Below are positions 8,401-11,400 of a stretch of 64,000 nt of DNA, piece by piece; within the stretch, counting starts at the first letter, position 1, and each line of letters begins with the position of its first letter. The DNA comes from Escherichia coli (lineage in GTDB: Bacteria; Pseudomonadota; Gammaproteobacteria; Enterobacterales; Enterobacteriaceae), in assembly GCF_024223415.1 (NCBI RefSeq), contig NZ_CP100500.1; one strand, written 5' to 3'. Position numbers: made by a program.

Positions 8401-11400
8401 GATGCTGAATTTACGTGTTATCGGCGGAGATTATCATTACACAGCAGCGGGGCAACTGGCTCAACATGAAGACACTTCTACGGTGCAACTTAGCGGCGAT
8501 CTGTTTAGCGGGCGCTGGGGCACGGATGGCGAGTGGATGCTTGGGATTGTTGGTGGCTACAGCGATAACCAGGGCGACAGCCGCTCGAGTATGACCGGAA
8601 CTCGCGCCGATAACCAGAACCACGGTTATGCCGTTGGGCTAACCTCAAGCTGGTTTCAGCACGGTAATCAGAAGCAGGGGGCCTGGCTGGATAACTGGTT
8701 GCAGTACGCGTGGTTTAGCAATGATGTTTCCGAGCAAGACGATGGCGTGGATCATTACCATTCGTCGGGGATTATCGCCTCGCTGGAAGCGGGGTATCAG
8801 TGGTTACCGGGGCGTGGTGTGGTGATTGAACCGCAGGCGCAGGTGATTTATCAGGGCGTGCAGCAGGATGATTTTACCGCCGCTAACCGTGCGCGCGTGT
8901 CACAATCGCAGGGTGATGATATTCAGACGCGGCTGGGTTTACACAGCGAATGGCGTACCGCTGTTCATGTCATACCAACATTAGATCTGAATTATTATCA
9001 CGATCCCCATTCGACGGAAATTGAAGAGGATGGCAGCACTATCAGTGACGATGCGGTGAAGCAACGGGGTGAAATAAAAGTGGGAGTCACGGGCAATATC
9101 AGTCAGCGAGTGTCCCTGCGCGGCAGCGTGGCGTGGCAGAAAGGGAGTGATGATTTTGCCCAGACGGCAGGGTTTTTGTCGATGACGGTGAAATGGTAAT
9201 CGCTGTCTGACCATCACTATTGCCGGATGCGGCGTAAACGCCTTATCTGGCCTACGGAGAGCATTTGTAGGCCTGATAAGACGCGGCAAGCGTCGCATCA
9301 GGCATTGGCGCGGTTGCCGGATGAATCCAAACAACAACCTCACTTATTCTGCGTGTGCAGCATATAGTTCACATCCACGCCGGGGCCGAGTTTAAAAGTA
9401 TTAGTGATCGGGGTGTAATGTAGCCCGGTTATATGTCGCTCTTTAAGGCTTGTCTGATCTACCCAGCCAAGCAGCTCTGCCGGTTTAATAAACTTCTTCA
9501 CATCATGCGTGCCTTTGGGCACCATGCGCAAAATATATTCCGCGCCAACCACCGCCATCAGCCATGACTTGCCGTTGCGGTTAAGCGTCGAGAAAAAGAC
9601 ATCGCCGCCCGGTTTCACCAGTTGCGCACAGGCTCTGACCACTGACTGCGGATCAGGGACGTGCTCCAGCATCTCCATGCAGGTCACCACATCATACTGC
9701 CCGGCATGTTTTGCCGCGTGCTCTTCCACGGTTTCCTGCACGTAATCCACCTGAATGCCGCTTTCCAGCGCGTGCAGCTTTGCCACCTGCAATGGCTCAA
9801 AGCCCATATCCAGACCGGTCACCGTCGCGCCTTCGCGCGCCATACTCTCGGCCAGAATGCCGCCGCCACAACCGACATCGAGCACCTTTTTGCCGAATAA
9901 ACCGCCAGCACGCTCGGCAATATAGCCCAGACGCAGCGGGTTAATGCGGTGCAGCGGTTTGAACTCACCTTCCAGATCCCACCAGCGGGAGGCGACGGCT
10001 TCAAATTTAGCGATCTCTTCGTGGTCTACGTTATGGTTTACCGGCGATTTTTCGGCATTCATTGGCACTTCTACTCCGTAATTGGCAAGACAAACGAGTA
10101 TATCAGGCATTGGATGTGAATAAAGCGTATAGGTTTACCTCAATCTGCGCGGCTGTGTTATAATTTGCGACCTTTGAATCCGGGATACAGTAGAGGGATA
10201 GCGGTTAGATGAGCGACCTTGCGAGAGAAATTACACCGGTCAACATTGAGGAAGAGCTGAAGAGCTCCTATCTGGATTATGCGATGTCGGTCATTGTTGG
10301 CCGTGCGCTGCCAGATGTCCGAGATGGCCTGAAGCCGGTACACCGTCGCGTACTTTACGCCATGAACGTACTAGGCAATGACTGGAACAAAGCCTATAAA
10401 AAATCTGCCCGTGTCGTTGGTGACGTAATCGGTAAATACCATCCCCATGGTGACTTGGCGGTTTATGACACGATCGTCCGTATGGCGCAGCCATTCTCGC
10501 TGCGTTACATGCTGGTAGACGGTCAGGGTAACTTCGGTTCCATCGACGGCGACTCTGCGGCGGCAATGCGTTATACGGAAATCCGTCTGGCGAAAATTGC
10601 CCATGAACTGATGGCCGATCTCGAAAAAGAGACGGTCGATTTCGTTGATAACTATGACGGCACGGAAAAAATTCCCGACGTCATGCCAACCAAAATTCCT
10701 AACCTGCTGGTGAACGGTTCTTCCGGTATCGCCGTAGGTATGGCAACCAACATCCCGCCGCACAACCTGACGGAAGTCATCAACGGTTGTCTGGCGTATA
10801 TCGATGATGAAGACATCAGCATTGAAGGGCTGATGGAACACATCCCGGGGCCGGACTTCCCGACGGCGGCAATCATTAACGGCCGTCGCGGTATTGAAGA
10901 AGCTTACCGTACCGGTCGCGGCAAGGTATATATCCGCGCCCGTGCCGAAGTGGAAGTTGACGCCAAAACCGGACGTGAAACCATTATCGTCCACGAAATT
11001 CCGTATCAGGTAAACAAAGCGCGCCTGATCGAGAAGATTGCGGAACTGGTAAAAGAAAAACGCGTGGAAGGCATCAGCGCGCTGCGTGACGAGTCTGACA
11101 AAGACGGTATGCGCATCGTGATTGAAGTGAAACGCGATGCGGTCGGTGAAGTTGTGCTCAACAACCTCTACTCCCAGACCCAGTTGCAGGTTTCTTTCGG
11201 TATCAACATGGTGGCATTGCACCATGGTCAGCCAAAGATCATGAACCTGAAAGACATCATCGCGGCGTTTGTTCGTCACCGCCGTGAAGTGGTGACCCGT
11301 CGTACTATTTTCGAACTGCGTAAAGCTCGCGATCGTGCTCATATCCTTGAAGCATTAGCCGTGGCGCTGGCGAACATCGACCCGATCATCGAACTGATCC

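Follow-up and report, generated by a model that had tools for sequence, protein, structure and literature searches.

The 64-kb window analysed here, a stretch of 64,000 nucleotides of contig NZ_CP100500.1 from the Escherichia coli assembly GCF_024223415.1, carries a gyrase gene in which residue 83, a serine in susceptible references, is encoded as a leucine. This locus raises the question of whether the leucine codon is genuine, how this strain came by it, and what it may be expected to do to quinolone susceptibility. The features concerned are listed below.

10209 to 12836, + strand: gyrA coding sequence (DNA gyrase subunit A, 875 aa), from the ATG-start open reading frame, the TIGR01063 match and same-coordinate annotation in relatives
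10407 to 10526, + strand: quinolone resistance-determining region (QRDR), codons 67–106 by translation, with the established boundaries; residue 83 is the sole difference from K-12 here
10455 to 10457, + strand: codon 83, TTG (Leu) and not TCG (Ser), from the sequence read and by script
10456, + strand: the causal C-to-T transition, which alone separates the gene from its four nearest gyrA alleles
10467 to 10469, + strand: codon 87, GAC (Asp), wild type, the same GAC being present in K-12
10572 to 10574, + strand: codon 122, TAT, encoding the catalytic tyrosine, which is intact (Y122 within AMRYTEIR)
12240 to 12242, + strand: codon 678, Glu (Asp in K-12), outside the QRDR

The original prediction took the ATG at 10209 as the start of gyrA, and the open reading frame 10209–12836 bears this out. 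Its product scores 1307.9 bits against the NCBIfam equivalog model TIGR01063 (cut-off 877), a full-length match with residues 8–840 covered; the NCBIfam parC models score under their own cut-offs. PF00521 and PF03989 are on record for the exact GyrA protein of the window, and its first 525 residues hit two solved structures of E. coli GyrA, 3NUH and 6RKS, with E = 0. The name gyrA stands at matching coordinates in the annotations of NCTC10444 and KV7, and the gene lies in the order ubiG-gyrA-yfaA, with the same neighbours as in K-12 and all relatives. By profile model, by the presence of Tyr122 and by chromosomal position, the gene is that of DNA gyrase subunit A.

Codons 81–87 read GGT GAC TTG GCG GTT TAT GAC (G D L A V Y D), and a script reproduced the coordinates given for the TTG. 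Compared with gyrA of K-12 MG1655, where codon 83 is TCG, the window gene differs at 36 nucleotides but at just two amino acids, S83L and D678E. Since E678 is common to the six nearest relatives and to the O157 strain AR-0427, K-12 alone being different in this comparison, D678E is a lineage polymorphism, unconnected with the resistance change. All QRDR residues (67–106) apart from 83 are unchanged with respect to K-12, and Asp87 is indeed intact, as had been claimed. The expectation that susceptible references carry TCG at codon 83 was equally sound: Ser83 is found in K-12, in six sister genomes and in two assemblies of the same sub-clone (see below), and TCG is present in 3,108 of 5,426 complete genomes. 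The allele is thus Ser83Leu, and it has the gene, the codon, the TCG-to-TTG transition and the wild-type Asp87 in common with known E. coli S83L mutants such as LM378 (Marcusson et al. 2009, PMC2714960). Unlike S83L in a K-12 background, it sits on another synonymous backbone, 36 nucleotides from K-12, and is accompanied by D678E. It shares the first-step S83L with the high-level fluoroquinolone-resistant genotype S83L plus D87N (plus parC S80I) (PMC5400412), but differs from it by the wild-type GAC at codon 87.

The strain had also been described as looking like a single-step QRDR mutant. This description stands for gyrA, which has no second QRDR change, and for gyrA only, since the 64 kb, with genes from inaA to yejO, include neither parC (codons 80 and 84) nor parE, nor marR, acrR or the plasmid-borne genes qnr and aac(6')-Ib-cr. 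With these loci beyond the window, the strain as a whole could be far more resistant than a single-step mutant would be.

The origin of the leucine codon was approached by comparing gyrA, using megablast, with 5,426 complete RefSeq E. coli genomes. This set contained no allele identical in nucleotide sequence to the window gene. The four best alleles (SCU-316, GPEC1446, NCTC10444 and NCTC9112) are each one base off, and each has C at 10456, so that alignment with the nearest alleles yields precisely the single C-to-T change that the original prediction had called for. The six closest genomes, namely these four together with KV7 and O78 strain 3, all encode Ser83. They are also the only genomes with about 100% identity over the window's first 25 kb, the next tier being at 98.9%.

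Polarising the variable sites against these six relatives gave 10 single-nucleotide polymorphisms (SNPs) private to the window lineage in positions 1–44927 (44.9 kb). The sites and the private amino acid changes outside gyrA and yfaL are as follows.

7256, 10456, 18785, 20162, 22609, 27611, 40643 and 43229, plus 18605 and 39684: private SNPs
18605: alpha-2-macroglobulin N1097Y
20162: YfaQ L111F
39684: Ada T151K
40643: AlkB A116V
43229: Mqo R116C

Exact-protein look-ups with Mqo R116C, alpha-2-macroglobulin N1097Y, Ada T151K, a C-terminal fragment of YfaL and YfaQ L111F recovered further assemblies of the sub-clone: GCA_900482235.1, GCA_044079975.1, ERR3437659, SRR31139555, SRR19977205, SRR19977217 and SRR8689735. 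The draft GCA_900482235.1 (contig UDHK01000009.1) shares 7 of the 10 private SNPs and differs from the window at only three bases between 1268 and 46359, namely 10456, 40643 and 43229. It has TCG at codon 83, and 10456 is the sole difference in spans of 13.9 kb (1268–15199) and 24.5 kb (5317–29831). A more basal member of the clone, SRR8689735, also has C at 10456 (TCG). The closest sample, ERR3437659, carries the SNPs at 40643 and 43229, the youngest two, and its recovered contig stops short of gyrA; the REP elements on either side of the gene interrupt Logan contigs. No sub-clone assembly recovered combines membership of the closest sub-branch with coverage of gyrA, and the T at 10456 is thus without an independent match. 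No papers were found on the accessions GCA_900482235, UDHK01 and ERR3437659. Since TCG is present in the nearest alleles and in the two sub-clone assemblies that cover gyrA, Ser83 is the ancestral state and the T a recent change, located towards the tip of the branch.

A change seen in one assembly could be a sequencing or assembly error in a strain that is truly Ser83, and the two public sub-clone assemblies that cover gyrA, GCA_900482235.1 and SRR8689735, do have C at this position. I consider an error highly improbable nonetheless. The other nine private SNPs recur in independent assemblies, which indicates that the window assembly is accurate at the SNP level, and the flank of 10456 (GTGACTTGGCGG) contains no homopolymer run. 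A random error would moreover have to hit one particular base and give the one change that yields the commonest resistance allele, for which the estimate is about 1e-5 per error in the 64-kb window. A related estimate can be made for mutation: with about eight QRDR substitutions selectable in vitro (PMC5400412), about 8 of some 135,000 possible single-base changes count as targets, and the chance that one of 10 SNPs hits a target is about 6e-4 if mutation is assumed to be uniform.

A second source of the leucine codon would be homologous recombination with another quinolone-resistant E. coli, and donors are abundant, codon 83 being TTG in 2,307 of the 5,426 genomes. The surrounding sequence makes such an import extremely unlikely. 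Between 1268 and 40642, 10456 is the sole difference from GCA_900482235.1, whereas each S83L allele examined in other lineages has between 5 and 44 additional gyrA differences from the window allele, the closest such site being at a distance of just 4 bp. The nearest TTG allele among the complete genomes, that of O157 AR-0427, illustrates the difficulty: it differs at five synonymous sites, one of which, 10460, is 4 bp from the mutated base. Import would therefore require that the donor's backbone be identical or that the tract span less than about 5 bp. Taken together, these comparisons show that the C-to-T change at 10456 is a recent de novo point mutation on the lineage's own gyrA allele, and neither a lineage polymorphism nor an import.

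Two of the relatives carry a different change on the same gyrA backbone. KV7 has TAC at codon 87 (D87Y) and O78 strain 3 has GGC (D87G), both with TCG at codon 83. These alleles resemble that of the window in their backbone, in affecting the same QRDR helix and the same pair of residues anchoring the water-metal-ion bridge, as well as in being single first-step changes; they differ from it in hitting the other anchor residue. Because both strains alter Asp87 and keep TCG, their mutations are events independent of the S83L of the window. Three parallel quinolone-resistance events, S83L, D87Y and D87G, have thus taken place on one identical gyrA backbone within a small lineage, which makes the lineage a tidy small case of parallel evolution. 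Fluctuation tests gave the same three alleles, each accounting for 25–28% of first-step gyrA mutants (PMC5400412).

The state of codon 83 across the species was counted with a 55-mer centred on 10456, in megablast searches where each 28-base seed must span this position, so that the matches report the state of the base. By this procedure, TTG is found in about 4 in 10 of the complete genomes. The exact 55-mer with TTG and GAC, the single-mutant form found in the window, is present in at least 411 complete genomes, and that with TTG and AAC (S83L plus D87N) in at least 1,371. In the same set, one plasmid-labelled record bears a copy of gyrA with TTG, a few genomes have gyrA in two places, and one of the 5,426 gave no gyrA megablast match; these records are probably cases of replicon mislabelling or assembly oddities.

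The GyrA(L83) protein of the window is itself widespread, with 8,174 index blocks for the identical protein in a public gene collection. In ten sampled instances it was encoded by gyrA backbones 27–44 nucleotides away from the window allele, in unrelated lineages, which shows repeated independent origin of S83L. The same pattern bears on the notion that Leu83 is a neutral polymorphism of the lineage, or is devoid of phenotypic effect in this background. That notion has very little to recommend it: the six closest complete genomes and the two sub-clone assemblies have serine, the occurrence of TTG on unrelated backbones speaks for convergent selection, and isogenic reconstruction of the mutation raised the MIC 24-fold (PMC2714960).

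The reconstruction was carried out in MG1655, where a ciprofloxacin MIC of 0.016 mg/L rose to 0.38 mg/L with S83L alone, at a relative fitness of 1.01, that is, with no fitness cost (PMC2714960 Table 1). Among resistant clinical isolates, 191 of 195 carried S83L, and the allele beat other alleles under ciprofloxacin (PMC5400412). These values agree with the characterization of S83L, in the original prediction, as the predominant first-step quinolone-resistance mutation. Biochemical work on E. coli gyrase supports the view that a water-Mg2+ bridge links the quinolone keto-acid to Ser83 and Asp87 and that mutation of either residue disrupts it (PMC9917921).

The best explanation, and a very probable one, is that a spontaneous TCG-to-TTG mutation arose on the lineage's own allele, was kept by quinolone selection, and lowers drug susceptibility. 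The sequence of events would be the following. A spontaneous C-to-T change at 10456 converted codon 83 from serine to leucine on the resident gyrA, and quinolone selection, whether in the field or through nalidixic acid plating in the laboratory, would have kept Leu83 in place. Ser83 lies on helix alpha-4 of GyrA, adjoining the DNA-cleavage site, where it and Asp87 would hydrogen-bond the waters of the Mg2+ ion that the quinolone chelates with its C3/C4 keto-acid. Leucine, bulkier and non-hydrogen-bonding, would cost the bridge one of its anchors, and the drug would then stabilise the gyrase-DNA cleavage complex poorly. The predicted outcome is nalidixic acid resistance, a ciprofloxacin susceptibility about 20-fold lower (MIC about 0.25–0.5 mg/L) and essentially no fitness cost. 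Both mechanism and phenotype are drawn from the literature, from which I infer nalidixic acid resistance with low-level, non-wild-type ciprofloxacin susceptibility. The allele would thus flag the source strain as nalidixic acid resistant and fluoroquinolone non-wild-type, and the strain would be either one parC/gyrA step nearer to clinical resistance or a laboratory NalR derivative. The observation of S83L in this gyrA is confirmed, and its value is practical, for surveillance; the allele is a textbook one, already known and essentially without novelty, and it teaches nothing new on gyrase or resistance.

The private SNPs have a marked strand asymmetry. On the + strand, 8 of the 10 are C-to-T and none is G-to-A. 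The sister strain GPEC1446 has 5 C-to-T changes versus 0 G-to-A, and over the window lineage, the six relatives and four Logan assemblies the ratio of C-to-T to G-to-A is about 21 to 6. Related Logan contigs add further C-to-T changes. The + strand of the window has a GC skew of +0.055; from the K-12 map, I take this strand, which is the sense strand of gyrA, to be the leading-strand sequence and hence the lagging-strand template. The bias fits replication-strand-biased cytosine deamination. Such deamination might even boost the supply of TCG-to-TTG changes at codon 83, in which case the prevalence of S83L would be due partly to mutation bias in addition to selection, but I regard this extension as rather doubtful. 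Two of the private SNPs fall within the ada-alkB alkylation-repair operon, and on the same doubtful reading the resulting Ada T151K and AlkB A116V changes might also contribute to the C-to-T supply. One-off chemical mutagenesis, with lesion segregation, was considered as a source of the C-to-T SNPs and rejected: the SNPs are nested over independently sequenced relatives, as expected of stepwise accumulation, and the same bias in GPEC1446 also contradicts it. Of the 10 private SNPs, 7 are non-synonymous or nonsense, a ratio that fits very recent mutations as yet unpurged by selection.

The nonsense mutation affects yfaL (5447–9199, + strand), which encodes an AIDA-I family autotransporter adhesin (YfaL/EhaC): a private CAA-to-TAA change at 7256 gives Q604*. 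Two Logan relatives, both wild type at 7256, have C-to-T stops of their own in this gene, at 7205 (ERR8651463) and 7232 (SRR8590865). Together these are three independent knock-outs of yfaL, although the grouping of the stops into 51 bp partly reflects the use of the exact C-terminal ORF as search probe.

An IS3-family element of 1,432 bp occupies 44928–46359, in a REP/BIME cluster between mqo and eco. Its annotation in relatives, "IS3-like element IS1397 family transposase", includes a programmed frameshift, and its open reading frames cover 44970–45500 and 45605–46327. KV7, GPEC1446, SCU-316, NCTC9112 and O78 strain 3 share the insertion at this site, and NCTC10444 lacks it. Past the element, from 46360 onward, eco and the nap genes follow in the window, KV7, GPEC1446, NCTC9112 and O78 strain 3. 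In GCA_900482235.1 the element is followed by a gene for an SDF-family transporter and CcmH/CcmF-like genes without a match to the window, which I read as gltP-nrfGFE, and in SCU-316 by fbaB-yegT. The differing DNA past IS1397 suggests either inversions mediated by the element or assembly joins at IS copies.

At the other end of the window, downstream of yejO, the sequence departs from that of NCTC10444 from 63308 to 64000. There NCTC10444 has a P4-like satellite or prophage remnant (terminase small subunit, capsid, primase and an Icd-like protein); no tRNA gene was found between 60000 and 64000 of the window. The window version of 63308–64000 has its best matches, about 98% identical, in unrelated strains.
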